55,613 nt of DNA from a virus (Duplodnaviria > Heunggongvirae > Uroviricota > Caudoviricetes): the IMG/VR virus record IMGVR_UViG_2744054912_000007; one strand, 5' to 3'. Both the position numbers and the translations under genes were made by a program. Positions 1 to 55,613 of this stretch are shown in pieces (the first letter of the stretch is position 1; every line of letters starts with the position of its first letter). Under the pieces are notes generated by a model, which had not been told where the DNA came from, searched no databases, and saw only the letters and a program-made list of their open reading frames with translations.

Positions 1-234
1 ATGAAATCAAAAGACACCCTAAAGTGGTTCCCTGCGCAGCTTCCTGAAGTAAGAATTATCCTAGGGGATGCTGTAGTGGAAGTAGCAAAACAGGGAAGAC
101 CTATCAATACCAGAACATTGCTTGATTACATTGAAGGAAACATAAAGAAAAAATCATGGCTGGATAACAAAGAATTATTACAAACAGCGATATCAGTTCT
201 TAAAGACAACCAAAATTTAAATGGTAAAATGTAA
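1..234 (+). CDS. ynaE: YnaE/YdfK-family small prophage protein (77 aa)
   Basis: Complete ORF from M at position 1 to TAA at 232-234. The sequence MKSKDTLKWFPAQLPEV...NQNLNGKM matches my recollection of the YnaE/YdfK paralogs that sit next to pin in Rac/Qin. Confidence 0.6.
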   Translation: MKSKDTLKWFPAQLPEVRIILGDAVVEVAKQGRPINTRTLLDYIEGNIKKKSWLDNKELLQTAISVLKDNQNLNGKM

Positions 235-550
235 TATAATAAACTTACTTTTTTATCATTTTTCCACTTTAACAACATTTTGCTCCACTTTTCCACGACC
301 AAACAACTTGAAATCTGGTTAAAATAACACGCAACACTATTCTTCTTCCTTGAGTCCGCCCGGAACTCGAAAAACAAACCGAGTTAAAGCCATTTTTCAC
401 AAAATCGATTTTGGGTCTCACCAAAATTACGGGGTTGCATACGCATTCGTTTATTTTCGAACGTGTACATACAAATATGCACAAAAATAATCATAATTAT
501 TTTCTGAGATGCATTATGATATGAACACCAATTTCGTATAGAGTCTCACT

Positions 551-1141
551 ATGTCTCAAATTTTTGCTTACTGTCGGATATCAACGCTGGATCAGACCAC
601 CGAAAATCAACGCCGGGAAATCGAAAGTGCAGGTTTTAAAATCAAACCTCAGCAAATAATCGAAGAACACATTAGTGGCTCAGCAGCAACCAGTGAGCGT
701 CCTGGTTTTAACCGGTTGCTTGCTCGCCTGAAATGTGGTGATCAATTGATTGTGACAAAACTGGATCGCCTTGGTTGTAATGCAATGGATATCAGGAAAA
801 CAGTGGAACAACTGACCGAAACAGGTATCAGAGTGCATTGCTTAGCATTGGGGGGCATTGACCTGACCAGTCCAACAGGAAAAATGATGATGCAAGTAAT
901 TTCAGCAGTCGCTGAATTTGAACGAGACCTTTTACTTGAACGCACTCATTCCGGGATAGTAAGAGCCCGCGGCGCAGGGAAACGTTTTGGTCGACCACCT
1001 GTGTTAAATGAAGAACAGAAACAGGTGGTATTCGAACGAATTAAGTCAGGTGTAAGTATAAGTGCCATTGCCCGGGAATTCAAAACCTCGCGGCAAACCA
1101 TTTTAAGAGCCAAAGCAAAACTTCAGACACCTGACATATAA
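551..1141 (+). CDS. pinR: Serine recombinase, DNA invertase Pin (Hin/Gin/Cin family), 196 aa
   Basis: N-terminal catalytic serine context ([10 protein letters not shown]) and C-terminal HTH (GRPP...SISAIAREF) typical of DNA invertases. It is convergent with tfa as in Rac, and the length equals K-12 PinR. Confidence 0.9.
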
Positions 1142-1238
1142 AAAATAATCTCGGTGTGAGATGCTTTACGTCTTCCAAGCCCCCTTCCTTGCCGTAAATG
1201 GAAAGATACATCTAATTATAGAATTTATATGTTTTACC

Positions 1239-1814
1239 CTACGGCAGTGCTGGCCATTCAATATCCTGTGAAGTTGACGTATCAACACGGTTCAGCAATA
1301 CCCGATACTTTTTCCATGCTTCCAGCAACGAGATTTCTTCCTCCGTTGCAATTTCCAGATCTGCAGCATCCTGAAGCGGCGCAATATGCTCACTGGCTAC
1401 CTGCATCAGGTTGTTTTTTGTTTCTTCCGCCTCCCGGATCCGGAACAGTTTTTCTGCTTCCGTATCCTTCACCCAGGCTGTGCCGTTCCACTTCTGAAAC
1501 TCCCCTTCCGGCGATAACCAGGTAACATTTTCCGGTAACGGACCGAGTTCAGAAATAAATAACGCGTCGCCGGAAGCCACGTCATAAACCGTTTTACCCC
1601 GATGATCTTCAACGAGATGCCACGATGCCTCATCACTGTTGAAAACAGCCACGAAGCCTGCCGGAATATCTGGCGGTGCAATATCGGTACTGTTTGCTGG
1701 CAGACCTGTATGAGGCGGAATATATGCATCACCTTCACCAATAAATTCATTAGTTCCGGCCAGCAGATTATAAATTGTTATGGTCCGTGGTTGTTCACTC
1801 ATTCTGAATACCAT
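1239..1814 (-). CDS. tfaR: Tail fiber assembly protein (Tfa), 191 aa
   Basis: Lies immediately downstream of the side tail fiber gene with start/stop overlap at 1814. The size and position match lambda-like Tfa chaperones. Confidence 0.85.
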
Positions 1815-4800
1815 TATGCAAGCCTCACAATATAGTTAAATGCGATGTTTTTGACGGTGTTTTCCGCGTTACCAGCAGCGTTAACGGTGATGGTGTGTCC
1901 ATGTGAGCCAATCGCAACCGAGTGCGTATGAGCACCAATACCCACAGTATGTGCGTGTGCACCTGCGCTTGCAGCAGTACCCGATACAGAGTGCGTATGA
2001 GCGCCTGCAGAAGAAGTGTTAACACTGTATTTAGAATAATCAGATGCTCCACTTCCCGGAGCACCACTGGAACCACCTGAAACAAATGTCATCGAATGGG
2101 TATGTGCACCGGCTGAAGCAGCCGTACCGCTAACACTATGGGTATGCGCCCCGGTGTTATTCGTGGATTTAGTGCCGTAATCAAACGACGATGTGTTTTT
2201 CGTCCCCAAATCCGTACTGGATGCGCTGGCGCTGTGGGTGTGCGATTTAATGCCGTCCTGTTCCTGAGATAATACGGCTCGACCACTGGCAGGTTTGCCC
2301 TTAATCGTCCAGCCACGCATATCAGGGATCACGCCTGACGGATAAGCGGCTGCAAGTTTTGGGTAGGCAGATTTGTCAAAAGTCTGCCCCTGCATCAGGG
2401 CATAACCAGACGGAACGGTATCTGATGGCCACGGGATTGGTGCACCGACTGGATAAAACTCTGCAGGAGGATGAGCCGAGGTGTAAAGCTGCGCCCAACC
2501 ACTTTCAAAACCATAACCGTCTCTTGAAGAACGGTAGAACAGACCACCATTTCTGTAATGCGCCTTCATCTGCAAGGTCCGGCAACTTCCGACTCCGGTA
2601 TAGAAGTTAACCAGAATATAGCTGTCGCCAGAGCGGGTGACATTGTAAGCGCCTGATTCGGCATTCCATGGAACGCCCCCATCCGCATCGGCATACGCAT
2701 CCGTTGCTCTTCTGGCAAAAGCAGCCACATGCGCGGCGGTTAAAGTGATATCAGTAGAACCATCAAATGGAACACCGGATATTTTTCTTGCAGTCTGAAG
2801 TTTTGTAGCAGTTGCAGCATTACCAGTGGTGTTCTGATTACCCGTAGTGTTTACACCTGGAAGGTTAATATTTGCAGAACCGTCGAAAACAACTCCACCG
2901 ATAGATCTTGCCGTCTGCAATTTCGTGGCTGTACTTGCATTACCATTCAATGAACCAGTTAATCCACCTGTAACAGACAACGGACCTGAAACTGTTCCTC
3001 CGGTTGTTGGCAGTGCTCCAATATCTAACGGCGTCGGTTTCTGATGTGTGCTATACATCGTATAAACAACACCATCGGTAACGCTGGAAGGCTTACTCGC
3101 TGAATATGTTGGCGATGTATAAATAGAAACTGTCGCATTTGCAGTACAATCCCAATGGATATTTACACGAGTCGCATAATTGCCAATCTCAACGTAAATA
3201 TCATATGTATCGCCGGATGTGTTGATCCAGGCGAAATTCGTTAATCCGACGGCTGTACGCTTCCACAAAGCCCCGGTAATTCCTTTGGGGTTTCCATTGC
3301 CTGCTCGTAGAACCAGTTCTGAAATGCCTGCCTGATGTGGGGAACCGACGTTGTAACCAGCGCCACCAATCAATGCGATGTAAACGATGGAACTCGCTTG
3401 TGGCATGGTAACCGTAGCCAGTTTGAACCACCCAGCCCCGCCAGAGAAAGACATCGTTACTGAATTTAAAGTACCAATATCTTTCGGCGTTAATGTTATA
3501 TCCGCAGTCAGTGCTTTTCCGTTAACTTTTCGGTTAGATGGCACCCTGCTATTCGCATTGTCATTGGCTGCTTTAACTGCTTTTGGCGTTGCGGCCAGCG
3601 ATTCACTGGTGCTATCAACAGCACTGCTAAGTTTCACAACACCTTTAGTTGTAAGGCTTGCGTCTTCCATCGCAACTGCACCGGCAATCTCTTCAGCACG
3701 ATCAGCAGCAGCTTCCGCACGGGTCGCAGCGGATTCAGCAGCAGTTTTGCTCTGAGATGCTGCCGTCGCACTGCCTGCCGCCTCTGTTGCTTTCGTGGAT
3801 GCCGTCGTGGCGCTGCCCTTCGCTGCTGACGCCTGTCTGGTCGCCTCATCTTTTGAAGCAGACGCAGATGATGCCGATGACGCTGCCGAACTGGCGGACG
3901 ATGCGGCTGCCGTTTTTGAGGATTCTGCACGGGTTTCCGACGCTTTCGCATTCGTTTCGGATGTCTTCGCTGCGGAAGCAGACCTCGCTGCTGCGCTGGC
4001 CTGTACAGCGGCTTCGCCAGCCTTCGTTGTGGCTGTTGAAGCGGACGATGCAGCACTTTCTGCCGATTTTCCGGCGGCGGTGGCACTGGCTGAGGCCTGC
4101 CCGGCACTTGTTGACGCGGCACTGGCAGACGACGCAGCCGCTGTTTTTGAGCCTGCCGCAGCTGAGGCACTCTGTCCCGCTGCCGTTTCAGAAGCCTTGG
4201 CGTTCGTCTCGGACGTTTTTGCCGCCTTCGCAGAATTTGCTGTCGCCGTTGCCGAGGAAGCTGCGCTGCTGGCGCTCGAGGCTGCGCTCGTTTCTGATGA
4301 TTTTGCCGCCTCTTTTGAAGCCGACGCATCCCGGGCTGAGGTGGCAGCTTCTGACGCTTTCGTGGTCGCGGTGGATGCTGAAGTGGCTGCTGATTGTTGT
4401 GACGCTGCCGCATTCGTTTCTGACGTTTTTGCCGCAGCGGCACTGGTGGCCGCCGCGCTTTTTGAGGACTCTGCAGCGGCAGCACTTTTTGATGCTTCAG
4501 TGGCCTTTGCTGATGCCGTTCCTGCGCTGGAAGACGCTGACTGAGCCGACGACGCGGCCTGTCCGGCTGACGTGCTGGCTGCGCGTGCTGAGCCTGCAGC
4601 ATCAGTCGCATGGGTTGCCGCCTCACGGGCAGATGTGCTGGCATCACTGGCTGACTTCTTCGCGGCTGCCGTGTTCTGTGCCACTGCGGACGCGTTACGC
4701 GCCACCTCTTCCACCATCAGTTCAAAACGGCGCAGTGCCTCTGGCCGGACATCATCCTCCGTCATTGCACCGAGGAAATCATTCAGTGTGCCCGGCTTTG

Positions 4801-5041
4801 AGTCCTCATATACGGTGATAATCCCGGCGTGTGACGGCGGGAATCCCTCCACCAACAGACTGACGCTGTACTGACCATACTCGACGTCCATTGTGTAACG
4901 CCCGGCTTCATCCGGGTTTTCTGAGGCCACTGTGTTCACCACCACCGTGGTGCTGTTGCGCCTGGCCTTTAGCTGAATGGTGCAGTTTTGTATCGGCTTA
5001 CCTGCGCCATCTTTCAGTACACCTGAAATCCGTACTGCCAT
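1814..5041 (-). CDS. stfR: Side tail fiber protein (Stf), 1075 aa
   Basis: Long protein with an Ala/Ser/Thr-rich repetitive central region and a C-terminal His/Gly-rich receptor-binding region, located between lom and tfa. Confidence 0.85.
3660..4650 (-). repeat. Ala/Ser/Thr-rich low-complexity coding repeats inside stf
   Basis: Translated region about residues 130-460 of Stf is reiterated SASSA/TATTKA-like units. The GC-rich repeats create long spurious ORFs in other frames and on the opposite strand. Confidence 0.7.
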
Positions 5042-5105
5042 ATTCCCCCCACAAAAAAGCCCGCCTGAACCGGCGGGCTGTCATAACACTGTGTTACCTG
5101 GCTAA

Positions 5106-5705
5106 TCAGAATTTATAACCGACACCAACGATGAAACTGTTGGTACGCCAGTCACCGCTGCCGGAGCCTTCATAAGCGACGTCAACGGCCACGGATTCGG
5201 TCGGGTTAAACTGCACGCCAGCTCCCCACGCCAGAGACGTGTTGCTGTGGCGACCGTCATCACTTCCGGTCAGCACATCGTGCGTTTTCCCCTTGTTGTC
5301 AGTTACGCGGATATAATCCCCGGAGAAAGTCGACACACGGCTGTAAGCCATACCCGCCATCGCATACGCGCTGAACCATTCATTCACGCGCACAGACGGC
5401 CCCGCCATCACGCTGAACCAGCGATTACGCACGGAATCCTCATGCCAGCGGGTATCGCTGTAATGCGTTTTTTGCTCATCTTCAGCGTTGGCATAACTGA
5501 ATGACGTAATCAGCCCCAGCGTGTCCGTAAACTCATAACGGTATTTCACGTTAATCCCGTTCAGATTTTCGCTGCCGGGAGCGTTCGTACGGGCATGAAG
5601 ATACCCTGCGCTCAGTGTGGCCTGCTGCTCAGACGCCCATGCAGGCGCACCGGATACGGCCAGACAGATGGCTGCGGACAAAATGGCTGCACAAACTTTA
5701 CGCAT
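5106..5705 (-). CDS. lomR: Lom/Ail-family outer membrane beta-barrel protein (199 aa)
   Basis: Signal peptide followed by alternating aromatic/hydrophobic beta-strand pattern and a terminal YKF. It sits between J and stf exactly as lom does in lambda. Confidence 0.8.
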   Translation of the reverse strand: MRKVCAAILSAAICLAVSGAPAWASEQQATLSAGYLHARTNAPGSENLNGINVKYRYEFTDTLGLITSFSYANAEDEQKTHYSDTRWHEDSVRNRWFSVMAGPSVRVNEWFSAYAMAGMAYSRVSTFSGDYIRVTDNKGKTHDVLTGSDDGRHSNTSLAWGAGVQFNPTESVAVDVAYEGSGSGDWRTNSFIVGVGYKF

Positions 5706-5772
5706 AATTACCTCTCGCTTTTCTGCAATAAAAAAGGCGCCATTTCTGGCGCCCGTATATGGGTTATAAAAT

Positions 5773-8700
5773 TCAGCTGATACTGATGCCTGCGGTGGCT
5801 TTCTTCATCACCACAACCAGCAAATCGCTGATACTTGCTGTGGGATACCAGTCATTTACCAGCCATGCTGACACCGAAAACTCCAGCGTCATGTGGCCGT
5901 GACCAGCTGGCATATCAATAACACCACTGTAAATCAGCGTATTATCCAGCGCGGTACGGTTATAAATTTCAGCACCATTTTTCTTCACTATCAGGCGGCA
6001 TGAGGAGTAAATATCAGTATGCTCTCTCTCATGTTTAGCACCGCTGAATGCCACCGCCGGAATAACAATCTGCCGGTCAAACGGCTGATCGTCATAAATC
6101 CTGACGGTAATGGTCCCTGATGGCCACCGCTCCGGTGCCCGGGAGTCCCGCGGGAAAGCCTTACCCACTGTTTTGACAATATCGCCTTCAATCTGGTTGG
6201 CTGACAGTTTCCCTTTAATCTGACAGTTCTCATTTATCGTAACGTTGTTGAGCGTCCCGGCGTTCGCATTCACACTGCCACTGATATCTGCATTTTTAGC
6301 GGTCAGCTTTCCGTCCGGTGTCATGGAAAATGCAGGAGGATTACCGCCGCTGGTAATGGTCGGAGCCGTCAGGCGTTTCAGGAACACGTCGTTCATGAAT
6401 ATCTGATCGCCCTGACCAACAAACATCGGCTTTGTGTTGCCATTCGCAGGATTAATCATCGCAATCCGATCAGCAGCCAGAAGCACCTGACTCTGCATAC
6501 CTGCTGGCGTATTCTCAATACCGGCTCCGATACCCGCAATATAAAGGCGTCCGTCCTTCATCTGCTGCAGTTTCACGGCCCACATGCTGTTCAGGTTATT
6601 ATTTGTATCAACCTGAACTTTCTGTATCTGCTGGATTGCCGCGCTCTGATTTTCCAGTTTTTTATTGACGGTCTGCGTGATTTCATTGCTGACATTCGTA
6701 ATGGACGTCCTGATTTCAGCCAGGTCAGGCGCAAGCTGACCGTTATCAATCTGCGTCCACAGCTCCTGGGCCAGATGTGTTTTCCCGATTTCTCCTTTGA
6801 AAAAATCCAGGTAACCTTCCGCATCATCGCTCGCCCGACCGACAGCCTCCACGAATGCCGATTTGCCGACTGTGTTCACACTGCGAACGTAAAAATAATA
6901 ATCATGGCCCGGCTTAATATTGATACTGGCGGCTATCCAGTACAGCGCCGTACCAAGATAGCGGGCTGTGGTTTCAACCTGCCTGATATCCGCAATCCGC
7001 GTTTCCGAGAACCAGAACTCAAACTGTACCGTCGGATCATAAACCGCAAGATGCGGCGTGGCAGTTATCTGAAAATAGCCCGGCGTCAGCTCAATCCGCG
7101 ACGGCGCTGCCGGGGCGGCAATCCGGAACGATACCGACGTCGGATCGCCCTGCTGTCCCCACGCATTTACCGCCCGGACCGTCAGCATGTAACGCCCCAG
7201 CGCCAGCTGCCTGAAGCGGTATGTGGTTTCCGTCGTCCGGGCCGTGCTGACCAGCCGCTCACTGCCGTCATCCGCTGTTACGGTCAGACGGAGCAGGAAG
7301 CTCACACCCTTCACCACCTTCGGCGTGTCCCAGCGCGCCAGCACCTGATATTCCCCGCTGTCTGCGGTGACTTCGGCGGTCAGGTGCTGCACCGCTGGCG
7401 GCGTGACACCATTCACCGTGCCGCTCTGGTCACCGTCAAAGTGCGCCCCGTTATCCACGATGGCTTCTTTTTCCGGTACATGCTGCACGGCGGTGATGGC
7501 ATACGTGCCGTCGTCGTTCTCACGGATACTCACGCAGCGGAACAGGCGCTGGCGCAGCGTCGGCAGCTTCAGCCCCCACACGCTGTATTCAGCAACACCG
7601 TCAGGAACACGGCTCACTTTCACCTTCACGCCGTCGGTGACGGACTGAACCTCCACGCTGACCGGATTGCCACTTCCGTCAACCAGGCTTATCAGCGTGG
7701 TACCGGAGGATGGCAGCGTGATTTCACGGTCGAGCGTCAGCGTCCGGGTCTGGCTGTTTACCGCCAGCACGCGCCCGCCGATGCTGATACCCGCATAGTC
7801 ATCATCACAGATTTCAATGACATCGCCCGGCACATGGCGAAGCCCTTCTGCGCCCACGCTGAAGTCCACAGTCTGCGTTTCCAGCAGTTCTGTTTTAATC
7901 AGCCACAGCCCGGCGCGGTGTGCCTGCCCCCGGCTGGTACAGCCAAAAGCATCCATTTTCGTGACGTTACGACCGTAACGGAGAATGGCCTGCGTATCTT
8001 CAACAAGCTCTGTCGCCGTCTCCCAGCCGTTATTCGGGTCAATCCAGTTCACCTCAACGGCATTATGGCGGTCCTTCAGGGCGCTGAAGCTGTAGCGGAA
8101 CGGCGCACCATCATCCGGCATCACCACATTACTGCGGTTATAGGTCCACACCTTATCCGACGGTCGGTCCTGCACGAACGTCAGCGTCTGCCCGTTCCAT
8201 ACCGGCATACAGCGCATCGCAGAGCAGAAATCACTGAGCACATCCCACGCCTTGCGCTGTGTGGTCAGGTACGCATTACAGGTGATGCGCGGCTCCGTGC
8301 CGCCAAAACCGTCCGGCACCGACTGATCGCAATGCTGGCCGATGACATACAGCGCCCATTTGTCCACATCCGCCGCACCAAGACGTTTCCCCATGCCGTA
8401 GCGCGGATGGGTCAGCATATCCCACAGACACCAGGCCATGTTGTTGCTGTATGCTGGCTTAAACGTTCCGTCCCAGATACCGCTGTATTGCCGCGTCTGC
8501 GGGTTATAGTTCGACGGCACCTGCAGAATACGCCCGCGCAGATGATAATTACGGCTCACCTGCTGGCTGCCGAACTGCTCCGAGTCCACCTGCACGCTGA
8601 CCAGTGCCGTGTTCGGGTAGCCCTGTTTCACATCGATGATTTCGGTGTATGACGACCAGAGCGTTTTGTTCTGCAGCTGGTCTGTGGTGCTGTCCGGCGT

Positions 8701-9252
8701 CATCCTGCGCATCCGGATATTAAACGGGCGCGGCGGCAGGTTATCCACCACCACCGAGGCCAGATACTGCGAGGTGGTTTTGCCCTTAATGGTGATGTCT
8801 TTTTCCGTCACCCAGCCACCGTTACGCTGTATCTGAACCAGCAGGCGGACTTCCGACGGATTCCGGTCCCCCTTTGAGGTGGTTTCCACCAGTGCCTGCA
8901 CACCGAAGGTAAAGCGCAGACGGTCGATGTTTGCCGACGTGATGGTCCGGGTGATCGGCGTGTCATATTTCACTTCCGTACCCAGCACCGTCTCGGAGCC
9001 GGAGGATTCAAATCCCTCCGGCGGTGTCTGCTCCTGCTCACCTGCCCGGAACACCACCGTGACACCGGATATATTGGTATTCCCCTCACTGTCCAGCACC
9101 GGCGTACTGTTCAGCAGCACGCTTTTTAATCCGTCCACCGGACCTTCAATCGGCCCTTCGCTGATGGCATCAATCGCACTCAACAGCTGCGTGGATTTCA
9201 GGTTATCTTTCGCTTCGCGCGGGGTATGCCCCTTACTGCTGCCTTTACCCAT
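5773..9252 (-). CDS. Tail tip host specificity protein J (1159 aa)
   Basis: Size and position downstream of I/K/L/M match lambda J (central tail fiber). Confidence 0.85.
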
Positions 9253-9312
9253 TCGTCATGCTCCATAAACGACAAAACCGCCCGGAGGCGGTTTCACATA
9301 AAACATTTTGCA

Positions 9313-10595: not shown

Positions 10596-10600
10596 GGGAT

Positions 10601-14863: not shown

Positions 14864-14877
14864 TTATTAAAACTCCT

Positions 14878-39966: not shown

Positions 39967-39977
39967 AGGGAGGTTAT

Positions 39978-42971: not shown

Positions 42972-43019
42972 ATTGCAGCCGGGATAAATAAATGCCGCCT
43001 CTGTGGCGGCATGTTGCTG

Positions 43020-45023: not shown

Positions 45024-45357
45024 TTATTCCATTAATTAAATCCGCACTGGATAGAAGGTACTACCTCTCACAGAGTAGCAAAGTTCAACTGGCTATGCGG
45101 GGTTAATCGGAATGCATGGTGGAATGAGTGCCGATACAAATCATCCTATATTCTAAGGAGTTTTAAGTTACTCAGCCTGCCAATTACTGGGGCATTTAAT
45201 TTGTATGATCTGTATCAAAGCTGGGATATAAGTTAAGTGAAGTATATTAGGCACGAATTACCAGCGTCTGCTCTTGGCACAAAGCGGACAACCACGCTAG
45301 CTCTACCCTGTGCCACAAAATGTCAATTTGCATCTGAACTAATGCACTTTAATCTCG

Positions 45358-45780: not shown

Positions 45781-45820
45781 AAGCCCTCCTGAAAATTACC
45801 TCATGACCAGAAATTAACAC

Positions 45821-46627: not shown

Positions 46628-46692
46628 CTCTTTTGATACCGAATCTTTTTACTCACAAATTGCCGGAAGTGATCCGGTATGAATATTGCGAG

Positions 46693-47118
46693 TCAATGCA
46701 CAGCCACAATATTTCCTGCAGGGCCACCACGATTCATCTGGTTGAAACCAGCGATCGCCACTGCGACAAAATCATCAGCGTCTCTCACCAGTCGTTCCCG
46801 CGTCTCCACTAGTTCCCGAAAATAGGCTGAGCTATGGCTGCGCATTCGGGCCACCAGCAGAGGTGGCATTGCTTTTTCGATAGCTGGTAACAACGCCTGA
46901 ATTTTTTCAACTGCATCAGGGGTGTCTTTCTCTACCCAGCGGAAAATTTTCTGGGTATTGCGAGCCAGGGCTTCCGGATGGCTGTCGTCATACAGTTCTG
47001 GGAACGTCATACCCAGTTCAAAATAAGCCCTGGTTATTTCAGCTGCCGGAACTTTTTCACCGTCCGGATGCGCCCAGGCATTCATCGCCATGCGGATGTG
47101 TTCATGCTTGATTTTCAT
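46693..47118 (-). CDS. YdaT-like protein (CII-like position), 141 aa
   Basis: Second gene of the early-right operon; overlaps the Cro-like gene stop; same order as Rac ydaS-ydaT. Confidence 0.5.
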   Translation of the reverse strand: MKIKHEHIRMAMNAWAHPDGEKVPAAEITRAYFELGMTFPELYDDSHPEALARNTQKIFRWVEKDTPDAVEKIQALLPAIEKAMPPLLVARMRSHSSAYFRELVETRERLVRDADDFVAVAIAGFNQMNRGGPAGNIVAVH

Positions 47119-47383
47119 GAATCAAGCTCCTAGAAAGTGGTTGTGTTAACATTTTGGTATCTTCCAGCTCGGGCCAAATATTCATCCAATCAAAAGGCCT
47201 TAGTTGCTGACGTGTAACTTCACCATTACTGGCTCGCTCAATAAGGACACATAACGATGCCCCTAACACTTGACCTTTACTCAATGCCTTTCTTAGATAA
47301 CCGATGCTGGTACCACACTCGCATGCAAACATACGCTGTTCATCTGACGAAAGAGAATTGAGAAATATTCTTAATTCTTCCAT
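47102..47383 (-). CDS. Cro-like HTH regulator (YdaS-like), 93 aa
   Basis: Divergent from the repressor gene across an operator-rich 100-bp region; contains an HTH-like segment (CGTSIGYLRKALSKGQ). Confidence 0.6.
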   Translation of the reverse strand: MEELRIFLNSLSSDEQRMFACECGTSIGYLRKALSKGQVLGASLCVLIERASNGEVTRQQLRPFDWMNIWPELEDTKMLTQPLSRSLIHENQA

Positions 47384-47414
47384 AGCTACTCCTTAGTAAA
47401 CACAGCAAAGAATA

Positions 47415-47487
47415 CCCATAGGTAAACAAAAGTCAATACCCACAGGTTGTTTACCTTGCAGTAATCGCATCTATTATTTACCTATGG
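47415..47487. promoter_or_regulatory. Immunity-region operator repeats between the Cro-like and repressor genes
   Basis: Nested inverted repeats CCATAGGTAAACA ... TGTTTACC ... TTTACCTATGG; the last overlaps the repressor start codon. Confidence 0.55.
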
Positions 47488-47903
47488 ACAAATATGAATT
47501 TAGACGACAGCAACTCATCAAAATTCGTGATGAGAAATGCGATGGTAAAGCGGTTAACGTGGCCAGAAAGATCGGGCGCGAGCCTTCTTATGTATCAAGA
47601 ATGTTGTACCCAGAGGGGAAAAAGGGAAAAAAACGGATCGCTGATGATATGGTGGAGATTATCGAAGAGTCCTTTGGGTTACCCCGGGGATGGATGGATG
47701 GTATCGTTTCATCATCAACGAACACAGCCTCCAGTTATGAAACAAGGGTTCTAACGCCACGACAACGTATTTTTTTAGATCTCTTAGACGAACTGCCAGA
47801 AAGTGAAGCGGATAACTTATTAAAAACTCTTGAAGAGAAAAAACAGTATTACAATATGATCTACGAAGAAATCCGTAAAAAGAAAGCACAAAACGCATCA
47901 TAG
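47484..47903 (+). CDS. Prophage repressor (RacR-like position), 139 aa
   Basis: Divergently transcribed from the Cro-like gene; probable HTH (AVNVARKIGREPSYVSRMLY); no S24 peptidase domain recognisable. Confidence 0.6.
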   Translation: MDKYEFRRQQLIKIRDEKCDGKAVNVARKIGREPSYVSRMLYPEGKKGKKRIADDMVEIIEESFGLPRGWMDGIVSSSTNTASSYETRVLTPRQRIFLDLLDELPESEADNLLKTLEEKKQYYNMIYEEIRKKKAQNAS

Positions 47904-47947
47904 CTCACCAAACAACTAGTCACCAGTTAAGACACCGCAAAAAGTTA

Positions 47948-47980
47948 CCCATGGGTATTTACTTTTTAAATACCTATGGG
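47948..47980. promoter_or_regulatory. Second operator-like palindrome downstream of the repressor gene (OL/PL-like)
   Basis: CCCATGGGTATTTACTTTTTAAATACCTATGGG, sharing the CCATAGGTA / TACCTATGG half-site with the repeats at 47415-47487. Confidence 0.5.
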
Positions 47981-48156
47981 TATCCTTCTTTTCATACCAA
48001 CCCACCCCGCCCCACAGAATGCAGGGCAATACTCGAGTTACCAGGCAGTGGTCAGGGGTTAAGTAGCCAGCCCGAGGCGTAAGAACATGACGGCGGGATT
48101 CAAATTTTGCAGTGCAGCAGTTAGTTCCGCCACCCGGCGTTAAGGGGAGAGATAAG

Positions 48157-48291
48157 ATGGTGCATTACGAAGTAGTTCAGTATTTGATGGATTGTTGCGG
48201 TATCACTTACAACCAGGCTGTGCAGGCTTTACGCAGCAACGACTGGGATCTCTGGCAGGCAGAAGTCGCTATACGTAGCAACAAGATGTGA
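48157..48291 (+). CDS. ydaG: YdaG-like small protein (44 aa)
   Basis: Hand-translated ORF (MVHYEVVQYLMDCCGITYNQAVQALRSNDWDLWQAEVAIRSNKM) with an AAGGGGAGAG SD; the length matches Rac YdaG. Confidence 0.55.
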   Translation: MVHYEVVQYLMDCCGITYNQAVQALRSNDWDLWQAEVAIRSNKM

Positions 48292-48301
48292 GATTCGCAA
48301 A

Positions 48302-48457
48302 ATGCAAAAAATCGACCTCGGCAACAACGAATCCCTGGTGTGCGGCGTGTTCCCCAACCAGGATGGAACGTTCACTGCCATGACGTATACCAAAAGCAAA
48401 ACATTTAAAACCGAAACTGGTGCGCGCCGATGGTTGGAGAAGCACACAGTAAGCTAA
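48302..48457 (+). CDS. ydaF: YdaF-like small protein (51 aa)
   Basis: Hand-translated ORF (MQKIDLGNNESLVCGVFPNQDGTFTAMTYTKSKTFKTETGARRWLEKHTVS); the length matches Rac YdaF. Confidence 0.55.
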   Translation: MQKIDLGNNESLVCGVFPNQDGTFTAMTYTKSKTFKTETGARRWLEKHTVS

Positions 48458-48942
48458 CGATTAAAACGTCTACTCCTGCTGTTCCAGAATAACTTCATAA
48501 AATGGGAGTATTTTTCGGTGACGAGATAATAAGAACAGTTTGCGCTATCACTCTGATGTTGAATGATGCCCTTCCGTTCTAATTTTTTCATAACCAGGTT
48601 ACGGCAAGGAGAAGTGATAATAAGATTTCCTGTTTTAAGGAAATCTTTAAATACAGCGATTTCTTTCTCAGATAAACGAAGCAATACTCGTTGCTCTGGT
48701 AGTAATGAATAATGCTTTTGAATATGTGCTCGCAATCTTGAGAAGGAAATGGCGACCACGAAAGAAAAGGCAAAAACGATAATCTGAAAGAGCCAAGGTA
48801 TTTCAGTATAAGCATTGAATGCGACAGTAAACTCTTTCGGTATCAGCCAGAGAGTGAGACCAAAAATGATAATCGTATACATAAGTCTTTCGAGTGGCTC
48901 GTTAGCAAAAAGTTTCAACAATGGAGTAAATACATCCAACAT
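48454..48942 (-). CDS. sieB: Superinfection exclusion protein B (SieB-like), 162 aa
   Basis: Two N-terminal TM helices and a soluble C-terminus; the position between the repressor and the kil region matches Rac/lambda sieB. The start is taken at the internal Met MLDVFTPLL...; the track ORF extends to 49065. Confidence 0.6.
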   Translation of the reverse strand: MLDVFTPLLKLFANEPLERLMYTIIIFGLTLWLIPKEFTVAFNAYTEIPWLFQIIVFAFSFVVAISFSRLRAHIQKHYSLLPEQRVLLRLSEKEIAVFKDFLKTGNLIITSPCRNLVMKKLERKGIIQHQSDSANCSYYLVTEKYSHFMKLFWNSRSRRFNR

Positions 48943-49383
48943 ATCAATAACTCTCAACTGTAAGGGTATTGAAATGTTAACACAAGCTCTCGCTGTAGGG
49001 GTATAGCCGAGACCACCGAAGCCCGGAGGTGGTGAAATAAAACCGGGCACAACACGAAGGCGCATTTCCGATATCCATAAAGAGTCGGTCTTGTCTGTTA
49101 AATTTAAATGGTGGGAGTGCGCCTCCGGTTGTAAATAACGACATTGCTGTGTGTAGTCCTGGCGGCATCAGTTTTTTTCTTGAAGTTCGGCTGATGTCCG
49201 CCCTTTTTAAAGTGAATTTTGTGATGCGGTGAATGCGGCTAAGCGCACGTGGCACAGTTAAAAGTCATGTTAGTCCTTATTGGTTTGGGTGGGAAAGCCG
49301 ACTGTAATTGTTAACTGGTTGCAGTCACCTGGAGGCACCAGGCACCGCATCAACAAAGTTCATTTGTAAAAATGGAGATAATT

Positions 49384-49605
49384 ATGATTGCACATCACTT
49401 CGGAACTGATGAAATACCACGTCAGTGTGTGACTCCTGGCGATTATGTTCTTCATGAAGGCCGGACATATATTGCCTCGGCAAACAATATTAAAAAGCGA
49501 AAACTATATATTCGTAACCTGACCACAAAAACATGCATTACTGACCGCATGATTAAAGTCTTCCTCGGTCGTGATGGTTTACCTGTAAAGGCGGAGTCAT
49601 GGTGA
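49384..49605 (+). CDS. kilR: Kil protein (FtsZ-ring inhibitor KilR), 73 aa
   Basis: Sequence [29 protein letters not shown]... matches recalled Rac KilR; first gene of the early-left operon. Confidence 0.7.
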
Positions 49606-49775
49606 TGACTAAGAAAATAAAATGTGCTTACCACCTTTGCAAAAAAGACGTTGAAGAAAGCAAAGCTATTGAAAGAATGCTTCACTTCATGCACGGGATT
49701 TTATCAAAAGACGAACCGAGAAAATATTGCAGTGAAGCTTGTGCCGAAAAAGACCAGATGGCACATGAACTTTAA
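49605..49775 (+). CDS. ydaE: YdaE (small Cys-rich metal-binding protein), 56 aa
   Basis: Hand-translated [21 protein letters not shown]...KYCSEACAEKDQMAHEL, translationally coupled to kil (ATGA overlap). Confidence 0.7.
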   Translation: MTKKIKCAYHLCKKDVEESKAIERMLHFMHGILSKDEPRKYCSEACAEKDQMAHEL

Positions 49776-49849
49776 TTAATTGACTATTCGAAACTGAATT
49801 TATGCCAGAAATGGCAGGTATTCGCTCAACCTTAATTAAGGAGAAAAAC

Positions 49850-50125
49850 ATGATTACCAATTATGAAGCCACTGTTGTAACTACCGATGACATTGTTCAC
49901 GAGGTGAATCTGGAAGGAAAGCGCATTGGCTACGTAATTAAAACAGAAAATAAAGAAACCCCATTCACTGTGGTTGATATCGATGGTCCATCAGGCAACG
50001 TAAAAACACTTGATGAAGGTGTCAAAAAAATGTGCCTGGTGCATATCGGAAAGAATCTGCCCGCAGAAAAAAAAGCCGAATTTCTGGCAACTCTAATTGC
50101 AATGAAATTAAAAGGTGAAATCTGA
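49850..50125 (+). CDS. racC: RacC (91 aa)
   Basis: Internal start MITNYEATVVTTDD... gives the 91 aa of Rac RacC; the gene lies upstream of recE. Confidence 0.7.
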   Translation: MITNYEATVVTTDDIVHEVNLEGKRIGYVIKTENKETPFTVVDIDGPSGNVKTLDEGVKKMCLVHIGKNLPAEKKAEFLATLIAMKLKGEI

Positions 50126-50226
50126 AAGAAATAGCCTGCGTATGGCGCAGGCTATGAACAGTGTGTATCCGGCAAGATCATTCACTGAACAAAACGAATT
50201 TTAATCTGAGTTGAGGTTAAAAAACA

Positions 50227-52827
50227 ATGAGCACAAAACCACTCTTCCTGTTACGGAAAGCGAAAAAATCATCCGGTGAACCTGACGTCGTCCTGTGGGC
50301 AAGCAACGATTTTGAATCGACCTGTGCCACTCTGGACTACCTGATCGTTAAGTCAGGTAAAAAACTGAGCAGCTATTTTAAAGCTGTTGCCACGAATTTT
50401 CCTGTCGTTAATGACCTGCCCGCTGAAGGTGAGATCGATTTTACCTGGAGTGAACGCTATCAACTCAGCAAAGACTCCATGACATGGGAACTAAAACCGG
50501 GAGCAGCACCAGACAACGCTCACTATCAAGGCAATACCAACGTCAACGGCGAAGACATGACTGAGATTGAGGAGAATATGCTACTCCCAATTTCTGGCCA
50601 GGAACTGCCCATTCGTTGGCTTGCTCAACACGGCAGCGAAAAACCGGTAACGCACGTTTCACGCGACGGACTCCAGGCATTACACATTGCTCGGGCTGAA
50701 GAACTACCGGCTGTTACTGCCCTGGCTGTTTCCCACAAAACCAGCCTGCTCGACCCGCTGGAAATTCGCGAACTCCACAAACTGGTTCGTGACACTGACA
50801 AAGTTTTCCCTAATCCTGGTAATTCAAACCTGGGACTGATAACTGCTTTTTTCGAAGCATACCTGAACGCTGACTACACCGATCGAGGACTGCTGACAAA
50901 AGAGTGGATGAAGGGTAATCGTGTTTCACACATCACTCGCACGGCTTCCGGTGCTAATGCTGGCGGCGGAAACCTCACCGATCGCGGCGAAGGTTTCGTA
51001 CACGATCTGACGTCACTGGCGCGCGACGTAGCCACTGGCGTACTGGCCCGTTCAATGGATCTGGACATCTATAACCTTCATCCGGCACACGCTAAACGCA
51101 TTGAGGAAATTATCGCTGAAAATAAACCGCCCTTTTCTGTTTTCCGCGACAAATTCATCACCATGCCTGGCGGGCTGGATTATTCCCGCGCCATCGTGGT
51201 TGCGTCCGTAAAAGAAGCACCAATTGGGATCGAGGTCATCCCCGCGCACGTCACTGAATATCTGAACAAAGTACTGACTGAAACCGATCATGCCAACCCT
51301 GATCCGGAAATCGTGGATATTGCCTGCGGTCGCTCCTCTGCCCCGATGCCGCAGCGAGTAACAGAAGAAGGAAAACAGGATGATGAAGAAAAACCGCAAC
51401 CATCTGGAACAACGGCAGTTGAACAGGGAGAGGCTGAAACAATGGAACCGGACGCAACTGAACATCATCAGGACACGCAGCCGCTGGATGCTCAGTCACA
51501 GGTAAATTCTGTTGATGCGAAATATCAGGAACTGCGGGCAGAACTCCATGAAGCCCGGAAAAACATTCCATCAAAAAATCCTGTCGATGCCGATAAATTG
51601 CTTGCTGCATCACGTGGTGAATTTGTTGACGGAATTAGCGACCCGAACGATCCGAAATGGGTAAAGGGGATCCAGACTCGCGATTGTGTGTACCAGAACC
51701 AGCCAGAAACGGAAAAAACCAGCCCAGATATGAATCAACCTGAGCCAGTAGTGCAACAGGAACCGGAAATAGCCTGCAATGCCTGCGGCCAGACTGGCGG
51801 GGATAACTGCCCTGACTGTGGTGCGGTGATGGGCGACGCAACATACCAGGAAACATTCGCTGAAGAGAGTCAGGTTGAAGCTAAGGAAAATGATCCGGAG
51901 GAAATGGAAGGCGCTGAACATCCGCACAATGAGAATGCTGGCAGCGATCCGCATCGCGATTGCAGTGATGAAACTGGCGAAGTCGCAGATCCCGTAATCG
52001 TAGAAGACATAGAGCCAGGTATTTATTACGGAATTTCGAATGAGAATTACCACGCGGGTCCCGGTATCAGTAAGTCTCAGCTCGATGACATTGCTGATAC
52101 TCCGGCACTATATTTGTGGCGTAAAAATGCCCCCGTGGACACCACAAAGACAAAAACGCTCGATTTAGGAACTGCTTTCCACTGCCGGGTACTTGAACCG
52201 GAAGAATTCAGTAACCGCTTTATCGTAGCACCTGAATTTAACCGCCGTACAAACGCCGGAAAAGAAGAAGAGAAAGCGTTTCTGATGGAATGCGCAAGCA
52301 CAGGAAAAACGGTTATCACTGCGGAAGAAGGCCGGAAAATTGAACTCATGTATCAAAGCGTTATGGCTTTGCCGCTGGGGCAATGGCTTGTTGAAAGCGC
52401 CGGACACGCTGAATCATCAATTTACTGGGAAGATCCTGAAACAGGAATTTTGTGTCGGTGCCGTCCGGACAAAATTATCCCTGAATTTCACTGGATCATG
52501 GACGTGAAAACTACGGCGGATATTCAACGATTCAAAACCGCTTATTACGACTACCGCTATCACGTTCAGGATGCATTCTACAGTGACGGTTATGAAGCAC
52601 AGTTTGGAGTGCAGCCAACTTTCGTTTTTCTGGTTGCCAGCACAACTATTGAATGCGGACGTTATCCGGTTGAAATTTTCATGATGGGCGAAGAAGCAAA
52701 ACTGGCAGGTCAACAGGAATATCACCGCAATCTGCGAACCCTGTCTGACTGCCTGAATACCGATGAATGGCCAGCTATTAAGACATTATCACTGCCCCGC
52801 TGGGCTAAGGAATATGCAAATGACTAA
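50227..52827 (+). CDS. recE: Exodeoxyribonuclease VIII (RecE), 866 aa
   Basis: The length equals Rac RecE; the C-terminal nuclease domain carries PD-(D/E)xK-like motifs ([17 protein letters not shown] ... [10 protein letters not shown]); followed by recT. Confidence 0.9.
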
Positions 52828-53629
52828 GCAACCACCAATCGCAAAAGCCGATCTGCAAAAAACTCAGGGAAACCGTGCACCAGCAGCAGTTAAAAATAGC
52901 GACGTGATTAGTTTTATTAACCAGCCATCAATGAAAGAGCAACTGGCAGCAGCTCTTCCACGCCATATGACGGCTGAACGTATGATCCGTATCGCCACCA
53001 CAGAAATTCGTAAAGTTCCGGCGTTAGGAAACTGTGACACTATGAGTTTTGTCAGTGCGATCGTACAGTGTTCACAGCTCGGACTTGAGCCAGGTAGCGC
53101 CCTCGGTCATGCATATTTACTGCCTTTTGGTAATAAAAACGAAAAGAGCGGTAAAAAGAACGTTCAGCTAATCATTGGCTATCGCGGCATGATTGATCTG
53201 GCTCGCCGTTCTGGTCAAATCGCCAGCCTGTCAGCCCGTGTTGTCCGTGAAGGTGACGAGTTTCGCTTCGAATTTGGCCTTGATGAAAAGTTAATACACC
53301 GCCCGGGAGAAAACGAAGATGCCCCGGTTACCCACGTCTATGCTGTCGCAAGACTGAAAGACGGAGGTACTCAGTTTGAAGTTATGACGCGCAAACAGAT
53401 TGAGCTGGTGCGCAGCCTGAGTAAAGCTGGTAATAACGGGCCGTGGGTAACTCACTGGGAAGAAATGGCAAAGAAAACGGCTATTCGTCGCCTGTTCAAA
53501 TATCTGCCCGTATCAATTGAGATCCAGCGTGCAGTATCAATGGATGAAAAGGAACCACTGACAATCGATCCTGCAGATTCCTCTGTATTAACCGGGGAAT
53601 ACAGTGTAATCGATAATTCAGAGGAATAA
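52820..53629 (+). CDS. recT: Recombinase RecT (single-strand annealing protein), 269 aa
   Basis: Start [14 protein letters not shown]... overlaps the recE stop (ATGACTAA); the length matches RecT. Confidence 0.9.
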
Positions 53630-53685
53630 TTCAGGCTGGCGGTGTAATGCACCGCCAACTTGAAATATTTTTTATGAGAAAAATT

Positions 53686-53880
53686 ATGAGATATGACAAT
53701 GTTAAACCATGTCCATTTTGTGGTTGTCCATCAGTAACGGTGAAAGCCATTTCAGGATATTACCGAGCGAAGTGTAACGGATGCGAATCCCGAACCGGTT
53801 ATGGTGGAAGTGAAAAAGAAACACTCGAAAGATGGAATAAACGAACCACTGGAAATAATAATGGAGGTGTTCATGTATAA
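53686..53880 (+). CDS. ralR: Restriction alleviation protein Lar/RalR (64 aa)
   Basis: Internal start MRYDNVKPCPFCGCPSVTVKAISGYYRAKCNGCESRTGYGG... with a Cys4 motif; the length matches RalR. Confidence 0.8.
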   Translation: MRYDNVKPCPFCGCPSVTVKAISGYYRAKCNGCESRTGYGGSEKETLERWNKRTTGNNNGGVHV

Positions 53881-54082
53881 AATTACCGCCACTATTGAAA
53901 AGGAAGGTGGCACTCCTACTAACTGGACAAGATATTCAAAATCTAAACTAACGAAATCAGAATGCGAAAAAATGCTCTCAGGTAAAAAAGAAGCAGGCGT
54001 TTCCAGAGAGCAGAAAGTAAAACTGATAAATTTTAATTGCGAGAAACTTCAGTCCTCGAGAATTGCATTGTATTCAAATTAA
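53873..54082 (+). CDS. ydaC: YdaC (69 aa)
   Basis: MYKITATIEKEGGTPTNWTRYSK...; the start overlaps the ralR stop (ATGTATAA). Confidence 0.7.
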   Translation: MYKITATIEKEGGTPTNWTRYSKSKLTKSECEKMLSGKKEAGVSREQKVKLINFNCEKLQSSRIALYSN

Positions 54083-54160
54083 AACTTCATAGCTGATTAT
54101 TAATAATCAACATCGGGCGTCAATTTCAGTCTAACATTGGCGCCTGCCAGAGGTGATGCG

Positions 54161-54376
54161 ATGGCACAAGTAATCTTTAATGAAGAGTGGATGGTTGAAT
54201 ACGGCCTGATGCTTCGCACTGGTCTGGGGGCCAGACAAATTGAAGCATACCGCCAGAACTGTTGGGTGGAGGGCTTCCACTTCAAACGAGTATCTCCTTT
54301 AGGTAAGCCAGACAGCAAACGAGGGATTATCTGGTACAACTATCCAAAGATAAATCAGTTTATCAAAGACTCATGA
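54161..54376 (+). CDS. xisR: Excisionase-like protein (XisR/YdaQ), 71 aa
   Basis: ATG start [32 protein letters not shown]...; the stop is 1 nt before the integrase start. Confidence 0.75.
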
Positions 54377-54377
54377 T

Positions 54378-55613
54378 ATGTCTAAATTACCAACAGGTGT
54401 CGAGATTAGAGGTAGATACATTCGCATCTGGTTCATGTTTCGAGGAAAACGATGTCGGGAAACATTAAAAGGCTGGGAGATTACAAACAGTAATATTAAA
54501 AAGGCCGGAAATTTAAGAGCGCTGATAGTTCATGAAATAAACTCCGGTGAATTTGAGTATTTAAGACGTTTTCCCCAGTCCAGCACTGGGGCAAAAATGG
54601 TGACAACGAGAGTCATAAAAACGTTCGGAGAGCTTTGTGATATCTGGACAAAAATTAAAGAGACAGAGTTAACAACAAACACAATGAAGAAAACGAAATC
54701 ACAATTAAAAACACTCAGAATAATAATTTGTGAAAGTACCCCGATATCACATATTCGTTATAGCGATATCTTAAACTACCGGAATGAACTGCTGCATGGA
54801 GAAACGCTTTACCTGGATAATCCAAGATCCAACAAAAAAGGAAGAACCGTGCGCACAGTTGATAACTATATCGCCCTGCTCTGTTCGCTGTTGCGTTTTG
54901 CGTATCAGTCGGGATTTATATCAACCAAACCATTTGAAGGAGTAAAAAAATTACAGCGAAACAGAATAAAGCCTGATCCGTTATCTAAAACAGAATTCAA
55001 TGCATTAATGGAAAGTGAAAAAGGACAGAGCCAGAACTTGTGGAAATTTGCCGTTTACTCAGGACTTCGTCACGGGGAACTGGCAGCTCTGGCGTGGGAG
55101 GATGTGGATCTCGAAAAGGGAATAGTGAATGTCAGAAGAAACCTGACGATACTTGATATGTTCGGTCCCCCAAAAACAAATGCCGGGATCCGAACAGTAA
55201 CACTACTGCAGCCTGCTCTTGAAGCACTGAAGGAGCAATACAAACTGACCGGGCATCATCGCAAAAGCGAAATCACCTTTTATCATCGGGAGTACGGCAG
55301 AACCGAAAAGCAAAAACTGCATTTTGTTTTCATGCCCAGGGTGTGTAACGGAAAACAAAAACCTTATTACTCGGTAAGCAGTTTGGGGGCAAGGTGGAAT
55401 GCAGCAGTAAAACGTGCTGGTATTCGCCGCCGTAATCCGTACCATACGCGGCATACTTTTGCCTGCTGGCTGTTGACGGCAGGAGCGAACCCGGCATTTA
55501 TAGCCAGCCAAATGGGGCATGAAACTGCGCAGATGGTGTATGAAATTTACGGTATGTGGATTGATGACATGAACGACGAACAGATAGCCATGTTGAATGC
55601 GCGGTTATCGTAG
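54378..55613 (+). CDS. intR: Tyrosine integrase (IntR), 411 aa
   Basis: C-terminal catalytic-domain residues (R...HxxR...Y context: NPYHTRHTFACWLL...MGHETAQMVYEIY); the length equals Rac IntR. The TAG stop is the last codon of the window. Confidence 0.9.
   Translation: MSKLPTGVEIRGRYIRIWFMFRGKRCRETLKGWEITNSNIKKAGNLRALIVHEINSGEFEYLRRFPQSSTGAKMVTTRVIKTFGELCDIWTKIKETELTTNTMKKTKSQLKTLRIIICESTPISHIRYSDILNYRNELLHGETLYLDNPRSNKKGRTVRTVDNYIALLCSLLRFAYQSGFISTKPFEGVKKLQRNRIKPDPLSKTEFNALMESEKGQSQNLWKFAVYSGLRHGELAALAWEDVDLEKGIVNVRRNLTILDMFGPPKTNAGIRTVTLLQPALEALKEQYKLTGHHRKSEITFYHREYGRTEKQKLHFVFMPRVCNGKQKPYYSVSSLGARWNAAVKRAGIRRRNPYHTRHTFACWLLTAGANPAFIASQMGHETAQMVYEIYGMWIDDMNDEQIAMLNARLS

Follow-up and report, generated by a model that had tools for sequence, protein, structure and literature searches.

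The stretch of DNA examined here (IMG/VR record IMGVR_UViG_2744054912_000007, 55,613 nt; hereafter, the window) resembles the prophage Rac that Escherichia coli K-12 carries, and it raises the question of whether a Rac-type prophage that looks complete is also functional. The original prediction, made from the letters alone, described the window as an essentially complete Rac-type prophage with an intact morphogenesis module that could package DNA if inducible. Our analysis makes it very likely that the whole is a Rac-family lambdoid temperate prophage of the siphovirus type, and that this copy is probably defective for the production of infectious particles on its own.

The window opens at the ATG of a ydfK/ynaE-type cold-shock gene, closes with the stop codon of intR and contains no tRNA genes. 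Apart from one 270-bp gap, it matches a prophage annotated in E. coli ET665 with 99.95% identity throughout. The ET665 counterpart lies between uspF/ynaM and ttcA, which is the K-12 Rac locus. The 26-bp Rac attachment (att) core, TTGTTCAGGTTGTATTGTTCTTTCTT, was found on both flanks of the ET665 prophage, and the core was also found in K-12. Based on ET665, the left-hand att copy is placed 734-759 bp before the window start and the right-hand copy 76-101 bp past the window end. Thus, both att sites are placed beyond the window, as read from this near-identical genome. Inside the window, no match to the att core was detected when up to three mismatches were allowed, and tblastn with IntR over the window matched intR alone; no second integrase or att boundary was present. 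Since the att copies flank the window and none is internal, the prophage would be ~56.5 kb, and the window is without its two ends only. The att sites expected past the window ends were thus identified on both flanks, albeit in ET665 and not in the window itself.

This type of prophage is common and already known. In a search of 5426 complete E. coli genomes, window 1-25000 was covered to at least 80% in 584, and window 30614-55613 to the same extent in 235. The late region is carried by about 11-14% of the complete E. coli genomes, and RefSeq annotation includes nearly identical copies in hundreds of genomes.

The site, the integrase and the early-left operon are as in K-12 Rac, and the element would be integrated into the 5' end of ttcA by IntR/XisR. 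The PGAP annotation of ET665 confirmed the predicted gene order, intR-xisR-rcbA(ydaC)-ralR-recT-recE-racC-ydaE-kilR-sieB, followed by trkG and by lom-stf-tfa-pin-ydfK/ynaE. Functions of the late genes were assigned by Pfam and PHROG searches, and the terminase, portal, capsid, tail, Q and lysis genes were all present, as had been predicted. The late genes lie in the order of a Q-like antiterminator, holin/lysozyme/Rz, trkG, ParB/TAGT, a headful-type terminase, a DUF4055 portal, a P22-type coat, connectors, a lambda-like tail and lom-stf-tfa-pin. The slot between the replication genes and Q contains accessory DNA, namely a transporter island and an IS1202-family transposon (relBE-ydfV-flxA) that would have landed in the hok/sok locus of the phage.

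To define the relation to K-12 Rac, the window was compared by blastn with the MG1655 sequence (NC_000913.3, 1411899-1434958). Six colinear blocks aligned, summing to 16.6 kb of the 23-kb Rac (Table 1). Four remnant-bearing blocks were 97.7-99.9% identical and the two blocks at the tail-fibre end were 90.0-94.6% identical. The late remnants of K-12 Rac (rzpR/rzoR-trkG-ynaK, ydaY-ynaA and lomR-stfR-tfaR-pinR-ynaE) keep their order, at 90-99.9% identity, and the block junctions fall inside the K-12 pseudogenes or fragments ydaW/rzpR, ynaK/ydaY and ynaA/lomR. The junction at 29678 is within Rz. Three parts of the window are missing from K-12 Rac, namely 5464-13928 (the C-terminus of the tape measure up to J), 15689-27247 (from the tail tube to the terminase and ParB) and all that lies between Rz and the immunity region. 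In addition, lom is split by IS5 in K-12, whereas it is intact in the window. Since the remnants are colinear and the breakpoints lie within K-12 fragments, K-12 Rac looks like a deletion derivative of such a phage, and the window can be regarded as a picture of K-12 Rac before its three large deletions. K-12 Rac has been reported to be an incomplete version of a prophage that is whole elsewhere (PMC6379469, citing Lawrence 2001; PMC4632033).

The immunity region differs. K-12 Rac carries racR-ydaSTUVW, which has no orthologue in the window. No DNA similarity of 45358-47993 to racR-ydaW was detected by blastn. In tblastn against the window, RacR and YdaV had no homologue, and YdaT and YdaS gave matches of 38% identity over 93 aa and of 28 aa, respectively. 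Because Sp10 of O157 Sakai and other published Rac-like phages also differ in this region, racR-type immunity, as the literature uses the name, defines K-12 Rac and not the family. Other lambdoid prophages carry the same immunity/replication module as the window, with no separate helicase loader. As judged by these comparisons, it is a different allele from that of Rac, attributable to an ordinary lambdoid module swap and not to damage. The assignment of the early genes as Rac orthologues thus applies to 47993-55613, with 99.8% identity, and not to 45358-47993. IntR is identical to the K-12 protein at 411 of 411 residues. The ET665 rcbA gene (locus 26576-26790) has a private 1-nt deletion that is absent from the window. 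Overall, "Rac-type, essentially complete" is borne out in outline by the att site, the integrase, the early-left operon and the late remnants; the immunity/replication region is not that of Rac, and two genes carry lesions.

The first lesion is in the gene for the head-tail adaptor Ad1, and the morphogenesis module is consequently not intact as had been stated. When aligned to the intact 131-aa homologue of ON470595, the Ad1 gene lacks one T between 18272 and 18273, and the frame shifts after ~37 of the 131 codons. In ET665, the gene is labelled by PGAP as "protein singed, frameshifted". A 60-nt query centred on the site had exact matches in 20 complete genomes, and in 720 others it matched with a one-base gap (740 carry the gene). 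These counts show that the lesion is real, recent and confined to a small lineage. A comparison with ON470595 over 17.4 kb revealed no other coding indel, and the other late genes are uninterrupted. The frameshift probably kills the adaptor. A prophage that looks complete is therefore not the same as an intact one, because a reading of gene order does not reveal the loss of a single base from an adaptor gene of 131 codons.

The second lesion is in the replication initiator (replisome organizer). An in-frame deletion of 270 bp, or 90 codons, lies between two copies of GTGACATTTCGTGACGCGC, with the junction copy at 46479-46497. The usual length of the initiator in other prophages is 356 aa, and ET665 has the full 356 aa. 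The deletion corresponds to residues 49-138, which include a helix-turn-helix-like stretch and a basic linker; positions about 45-132 of the phrog_3729 profile are missing from the window protein, and one of two iteron-like CGTGAC repeat clusters is also taken. The lost part is probably the DNA-binding portion and likely of the winged-helix type. An internal protein repeat was considered as the cause of the deletion and was rejected, as no internal similarity was found. As a single match to a 91-bp query, the junction was detected in none of the 5426 complete E. coli genomes; this query is confounded by repeats, and the result excludes only full-length matches of roughly at least 93% identity. 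An exact 35-nt junction was found in four metagenome contigs (L028-L031), with surroundings 94-98% identical to the window. Since the junction occurs on such backgrounds, the deletion is recurrent (repeat-mediated) or represents a tolerated, viable short allele. Loss of initiator function is probable, not certain.

Can the window nevertheless be a fully functional, inducible temperate phage, in which the lesions are harmless because the short allele is tolerated or because they are sequencing errors? The uninterrupted state of all other late genes, with no further coding indel over the 17.4 kb compared with ON470595, the recurrence of the short initiator in the four contigs and the particle formation by Rac-like prophages that KingRac exemplifies (PMC6731689) are in its favour. 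However, the Ad1 frameshift is common to 20 independent complete assemblies while 720 are intact, and it stops the frame at ~37 of 131 codons. Furthermore, the initiator is without its helix-turn-helix-like stretch, in an arrangement seen in none of the complete genomes. We regard full function as improbable. The "phage" records ON4705xx were rejected as evidence of virions, because they are predicted prophages that include flanking host genes.

The two lesions probably disable this copy for autonomous production of infectious virions. Several points weigh against this conclusion. The element is known here from its sequence alone, and the att sites, hence the competence for excision, are taken from ET665. 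That Ad1 is essential is deduced from other tailed phages. The short initiator may be a tolerated allele or a recurrent deletion, not a private null. Finally, the adaptor and replication functions could come in trans from other lambdoid prophages resident in the same host, a situation reported for O157 prophages (PMC2669165).

The control region was analyzed with respect to induction. No S24 peptidase domain was detected by Pfam in the 139-aa repressor, which is too short for S24. There is no LexA box in the control region; the sole CTGT-N8-ACAG of the window lies inside the gene for the MFS transporter, and one occurrence equals the chance expectation. No antirepressor is annotated by PGAP. 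Induction would thus not proceed by RecA-mediated self-cleavage of the repressor. The repressor of Sp10 is also without a peptidase motif, and Sp10 was not induced by mitomycin C, yet it showed low-frequency excision and transfer (PMC2669165). KingRac is weakly inducible (PMC6731689). For the window, excision, recombination, RecET/Kil expression and lysis are plausible; autonomous infectious virions are not. As for the prediction that the prophage could package DNA if inducible, capsids may still be filled. Infectious particles are doubtful because the adaptor is broken, the initiator is shortened, the repressor has no S24 domain and the control region has no LexA box.

It may also be asked whether the prophage is grounded and kept for its cargo (trkG, relBE, hokD, sieB, ralR, lom and the island), with phage functions decaying in the absence of selection and the lesions as first steps toward the K-12 Rac state. 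The density of cargo is high, and the literature on Rac domestication points in the same direction (PMC4632033, PMC6379469). The lesions are also recent, because outside them the late region shows 99.3-100% identity to intact copies. On the other hand, 720 of 740 genomes keep an intact adaptor, an argument that the phage type as a whole is still under selection for function, and this explanation overlaps a temperate prophage with two probably disabling lesions rather than excluding it. As a separate explanation, we consider it quite unlikely.

Two blocks in the window are about 99% identical to the K-12 Qin prophage, 1-2005 and 34486-36814. They might be taken as signs of a composite of Rac and a Qin-like prophage, formed in tandem or by a large recombination, with an internal boundary in the window. 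Window 1-2005 (ydfK-pin-tfa and the C-terminal end of stf) is 99.0% identical to K-12 Qin (ydfK-pinQ-tfaQ) versus 94.6% to K-12 Rac, which suggests that the homologous ends of Rac and Qin were exchanged in some lineage. The second block contains hokD, relBE and flxA, which the original prediction had assigned to a mosaic with Qin. Its Qin counterpart includes ydfW, which was once suspected to be an integrase fragment. However, ydfW is the C-terminus of a DDE transposase. The relBE block is bounded by transposon ends and a target duplication, and unoccupied insertion sites occur in other genomes. Moreover, the att core is absent from the interior, IntR is the sole tyrosine integrase match, and the window has a single colinear lambdoid gene order with each module once. 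These results leave the composite extremely unlikely, and the window is best regarded as one Rac-family prophage.

The relBE genes, a textbook type II toxin-antitoxin pair, lie in a 3301-bp unit with an intact transposase. A perfect 15-bp direct repeat, ATAGCCTGCTTCTCC, is present at 34729-34743 and 38045-38059, and corresponds to a target duplication. The unit has 5'-TGT...ACA-3' ends with imperfect terminal inverted repeats (22 of 30 nt match). Over the whole window and both strands, an end-match score of 16/22 was reached at two positions only, one of which abuts the direct repeat. As a candidate left end of a canonical 1.6-kb insertion sequence (IS), the region near 36425 was tried and rejected, because it gave no inverted-repeat match. 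The transposase differs by one amino acid from a plasmid copy annotated by PGAP as an intact ISEsa1-family (IS1202-family) transposase, and K-12 ydfW corresponds to the last 49 of its 446 codons. In ET665, PGAP splits the 446-aa open reading frame (9069-10409) into "ydfW" and "partial ISEsa1 transposase", and no stop codon is present there.

The unit sits at the Shine-Dalgarno/ATG of hok, and the insertion separates hokD from the sok/mok leader. The sok match lies 3.3 kb from hokD, and the orphaned leader half has 96% identity to the sequence upstream of mok/hok in the LT-IIa prophage Rac-SA53. Empty sites were examined in a spread sample of 40 rows from 5,234 matching E. coli records; the flanks were contiguous over 285-286 bp in 24 of them (285 = 145 + 156 - 16 nt). 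The hok/sok site is also empty in metagenome contig L028. On an IncF plasmid of Enterobacter asburiae (NZ_AP024282.1), the 3.3-kb unit (99.3% identity) occupies a hok locus of the R1 type close to psiAB, where a different 15-mer, ATGGCCTTCTTCTCC, borders it at each end. The different duplication indicates an independent insertion at the homologous hok position. In K-12 Qin, hokD-relE-relB-ydfV-flxA-ydfW is 99.1% identical to the window and the left transposon junction is identical. Qin keeps the left 2.07 kb of the transposon, is truncated in the transposase at window 36814, and is without the right end and the sok half. Since the left junction is identical and the unit is truncated, the relBE block is a shared mobile insertion and not evidence of Rac-Qin recombination. 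The likeness to Qin was therefore correctly noted, and it is better explained by a transposon in both prophages than by exchange with Qin.

The large DDE transposase (about 440-460 aa in the family, 446 aa here) with N-terminal HTH domains and an rve core, the TGT/ACA ends, the long duplications known in one subgroup and the passenger-carrying "tIS" forms agree with the IS1202 family (PMC10132070). ISEsa1 itself has a listed length of 1609 bp and is given without a detectable target duplication. In contrast, the window unit is 3.3 kb, carries four passenger genes, has a clear 15-bp duplication and shows an apparent preference for the hok start region. A Phytobacter plasmid (NZ_AP018757.1, 1-4164) has a 99.2% match to window 36425-38088, with the transposase and right end, directly adjoined by an ncrABCY nickel-resistance cluster and not by flxA. 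This hints that the IS may mobilise different passenger sets; the left end was not found on that plasmid. Thus, it is fairly probable that relBE, ydfV and flxA are passengers of an IS1202-family transposon that targets the Shine-Dalgarno/ATG region of hok, and are not native to Qin or Rac. The insertion would have cut hok from mok/sok and created the relB-relE-relF(hokD) operon, ydfW would be a stump of the transposase, and the unit is possibly still mobile between prophages and IncF plasmids. Our literature search found no description of a transposon origin of relBE, which ISfinder, TnCentral or subscription papers may record. If not already described, this origin is of interest to researchers of toxin-antitoxin systems and insertion sequences. 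Of the results of this analysis, only the structure of the relBE transposon is a fresh point.

Next to the sok remnant, the replication-Q slot contains the non-phage island of transporter genes. Its G+C content is 0.50-0.54, as compared with 0.42-0.47 in the adjoining sequence. The DUF2254-BCCT pair (41589-45287) is about 90-91% identical in nucleotide sequence to a chromosomal pair in Kluyvera and Pseudocitrobacter. Neither the island nor the transposon structure around relBE had been noticed in the earlier inventory, which was incomplete in this respect.

Table 1. Features of the window and blocks aligned to K-12 Rac (coordinates and strand of the window).
Feature	Coordinates	Strand	Remarks
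ydfK/ynaE-type cold-shock gene	1-234	+	PGAP annotation of ET665
Pin-family serine invertase	551-1141	+	Pfam Resolvase and HTH_7
tfa, tail fibre assembly	1239-1814	-	
stf, side tail fibre	1814-5041	-	
lom, outer-membrane protein	5106-5705	-	intact
J	5773-9252	-	
I, K (C40 peptidase), L, M	9313-11637	-	lambda-like tail genes
Tape measure	11630-14863	-	1077 aa; K-12 retains 13929-14863 only, as ynaA/tmpR
Tail assembly chaperone G (YdaY) and G-T product	15029-15798	-	phrog_313
Tail tube	15847-16809	-	PHROG match
Tail terminator	16836-17228	-	PHROG match
Tail completion/Neck1	17225-17605	-	PHROG match
Head closure Hc1	17606-17989	-	PHROG match
Head-tail adaptor Ad1	17989-18383	-	phrog_493; frameshifted
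Head/packaging block	18387-25594	-	includes a 58-aa protein
P22-type major capsid	18606-19745	-	
Scaffold-like DUF6651	19844-20608	-	
Mu-F-like head protein	20713-21825	-	
DUF4055 portal	21809-23215	-	
TerL	23218-24519	-	Terminase_6 type
TerS	24500-25594	-	
TAGT-family glycosyltransferase	25785-26717	-	Pfam PF20691, E 3.4e-35
ParB_N protein	26710-27501	-	full length; K-12 ynaK is its 5' remnant
trkG, potassium transporter	27639-29096	-	moron; 99.6% to K-12 Rac
Rz; Rz1	29234-29710; 29293-29478	-	
Lysozyme	29695-30192	-	
Holin	30192-30407	-	
TolA-C-terminal-domain paralogues	30659-31033; 31205-31633	-	phrog_5772, both full length
STnc100-family RNA	31744-31930	-	Rfam RF02076, 86.6 bits; downstream of Q
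DUF1133/Q-like antiterminator	32678-33220	-	DUF1133 2.5e-107; Phage_antitermQ 26.1 bits (cut-off 26)
YbcO nuclease	33217-33507	-	
DUF1367	33507-34106	-	
hokD (relF)	34575-34730	-	severed from mok/sok leader by transposon
IS1202-family transposon	34744-38044	-	3301 bp
relE	34802-35089		in transposon
relB	35089-35328		in transposon
ydfV	35353-35658	+	in transposon
flxA	35861-36193	+	in transposon
ISEsa1-family transposase	36630-37970		intact, 446 aa; Pfam HTH_28/29/32 and rve_3
Orphaned sok/mok leader half	38045-38227	-	Rfam sok RF01794, 110 bits, match 38044-38215
Non-phage cargo island	about 38.5-45.3 kb; genes 38767-45017		~6.7 kb; between DUF977 and sok remnant
MFS transporter, gamma-glutamylcyclotransferase, LysR regulator		+	in island
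DUF2254 membrane protein, BCCT/BetT-type transporter		-	in island
DUF977 gene	45358-45780	-	
Replication initiator/replisome organizer	45821-46621	-	phrog_3729
YdaT-family CII-like gene	46693-47118	-	
YdaS-family Cro-like gene	47102-47383	-	
Repressor	47484-47903	+	139 aa; phrog_5736, no Pfam domain
Rac-orthologous early-left operon	47993-55613	+	99.8% to K-12 Rac
ydaG, ydaF, sieB, kilR, ydaE, racC			within early-left operon; sieB on - strand
recE	50227-52827		
recT	52820-53629		
rcbA (ydaC)	53873-54082		intact
ralR with RalA RNA	RNA 53879-54057	- (RNA)	Rfam, 225 bits; antisense to rcbA/ralR
xisR	54161-54376		
intR	54378-55613		
K-12 Rac block	1-2824		94.6%
K-12 Rac blocks	5290-5463; 3555-5295		lomR halves (IS5-split in K-12) and stfR N-terminus
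K-12 Rac block	13929-15688		99.9%; ynaA and ydaY
K-12 Rac block	27248-29678		99.6%; ynaK-trkG-rzoR-rzpR'
K-12 Rac block	47993-55613		99.8%; intR through ydaG

The remaining features are summarized in Table 1. Positions 1-1141 are the right-hand end region of the prophage, with att ~0.75 kb past the window start. A segment invertible by Pin was considered and rejected, since no long inverted repeats were found in 1-5300; Pin looks orphaned. Within tfa, a match to the IS009 RNA family was observed at 1273-1471. For the tail assembly chaperone, the G-T product would arise by a -1 programmed frameshift, for which a slippery heptamer, A AAA AAG, is present at 15343-15349 and the T extension is open in the -1 frame. 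The combination of terminase, portal and Mu-F-like protein, together with knowledge of these families, suggests headful packaging.

Immediately upstream of the terminase lie the genes for the TAGT ("TET-associated") glycosyltransferase and ParB_N, and their neighbourhood has no gene for TET/JBP or a cytosine methyltransferase. This gene pair matched phrog_842 and phrog_620, and may form a DNA-modification or anti-restriction module. PADLOC analysis of 10 accessory proteins detected no defence system, and its sole match was of a methyltransferase-N-terminal (ParB-like) type on the ParB protein.

The lysis cassette is 93.4% identical to essD-rrrD-rzpD of DLP12. The DUF1133 protein is predicted to be a Q-type antiterminator with a lysis-first late operon downstream. 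A promoter/terminator scan of the Q-lysis interval gave no enrichment over shuffles and was not used as evidence. The pair of TolA-domain genes fills the moron slot between Q and the holin, in which toxins are found in Stx and LT-II phages; one of the two is annotated by PGAP as a tolA pseudogene. These proteins might serve as decoys for Tol-dependent phages or colicins. In the early-left operon, Rfam gave a DicF-like RNA match at 49148-49203 that did not reach the gathering score; its position, upstream of kilR, is that of K-12 KilS.

Full-size Rac-like phages have already been published (PMC2669165, PMC6731689, PMC5917428, PMC6379469). Besides ET665, another full-length relative is ON470595 (vB_EcoS-683R6), a predicted prophage deposited as a phage. 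Its region from the tape measure to the holin is 99.3% identical to the window, and the Q block and the early-left operon are also shared. In ON470595, the same late region is joined to K-12-type racR-ydaSTUVW, with the same K-12 deletion junctions. It differs from the window in the replication-Q slot, which contains S8 peptidase and FtsH-like cargo, in the presence of two tRNAs and in its intact Ad1.

Sp10/CP-933R is integrated at ttcA as is the window prophage, and can transfer to K-12 (PMC2669165, PMC4632033). The parts of Sp10 in common with the window are limited to the early-left operon (98.8%) and the DUF1367-YbcO-Q block (90%). In contrast, it has an HK97-like head module, another immunity region and DnaC-type replication genes. 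KingRac, a particle-forming Rac-like phage (PMC6731689), has the same ttcA integration site; this likeness is by description and not by sequence. Full-sized Rac-like LT-II prophages have been described (PMC5917428). In Rac-SA53 (KU052037), the attP/ttcA, intR-kilR, DUF977, hok and Q blocks are 83-95% identical to the window. Its structural genes are different and appear myovirus-like, and it carries toxin genes. Moreover, mok/hok/sok is intact in Rac-SA53, with adjacent halves and without the relBE transposon. Thus, as compared by sequence with Sp10 and Rac-SA53, only the window has the late region whose fragments survive in K-12.

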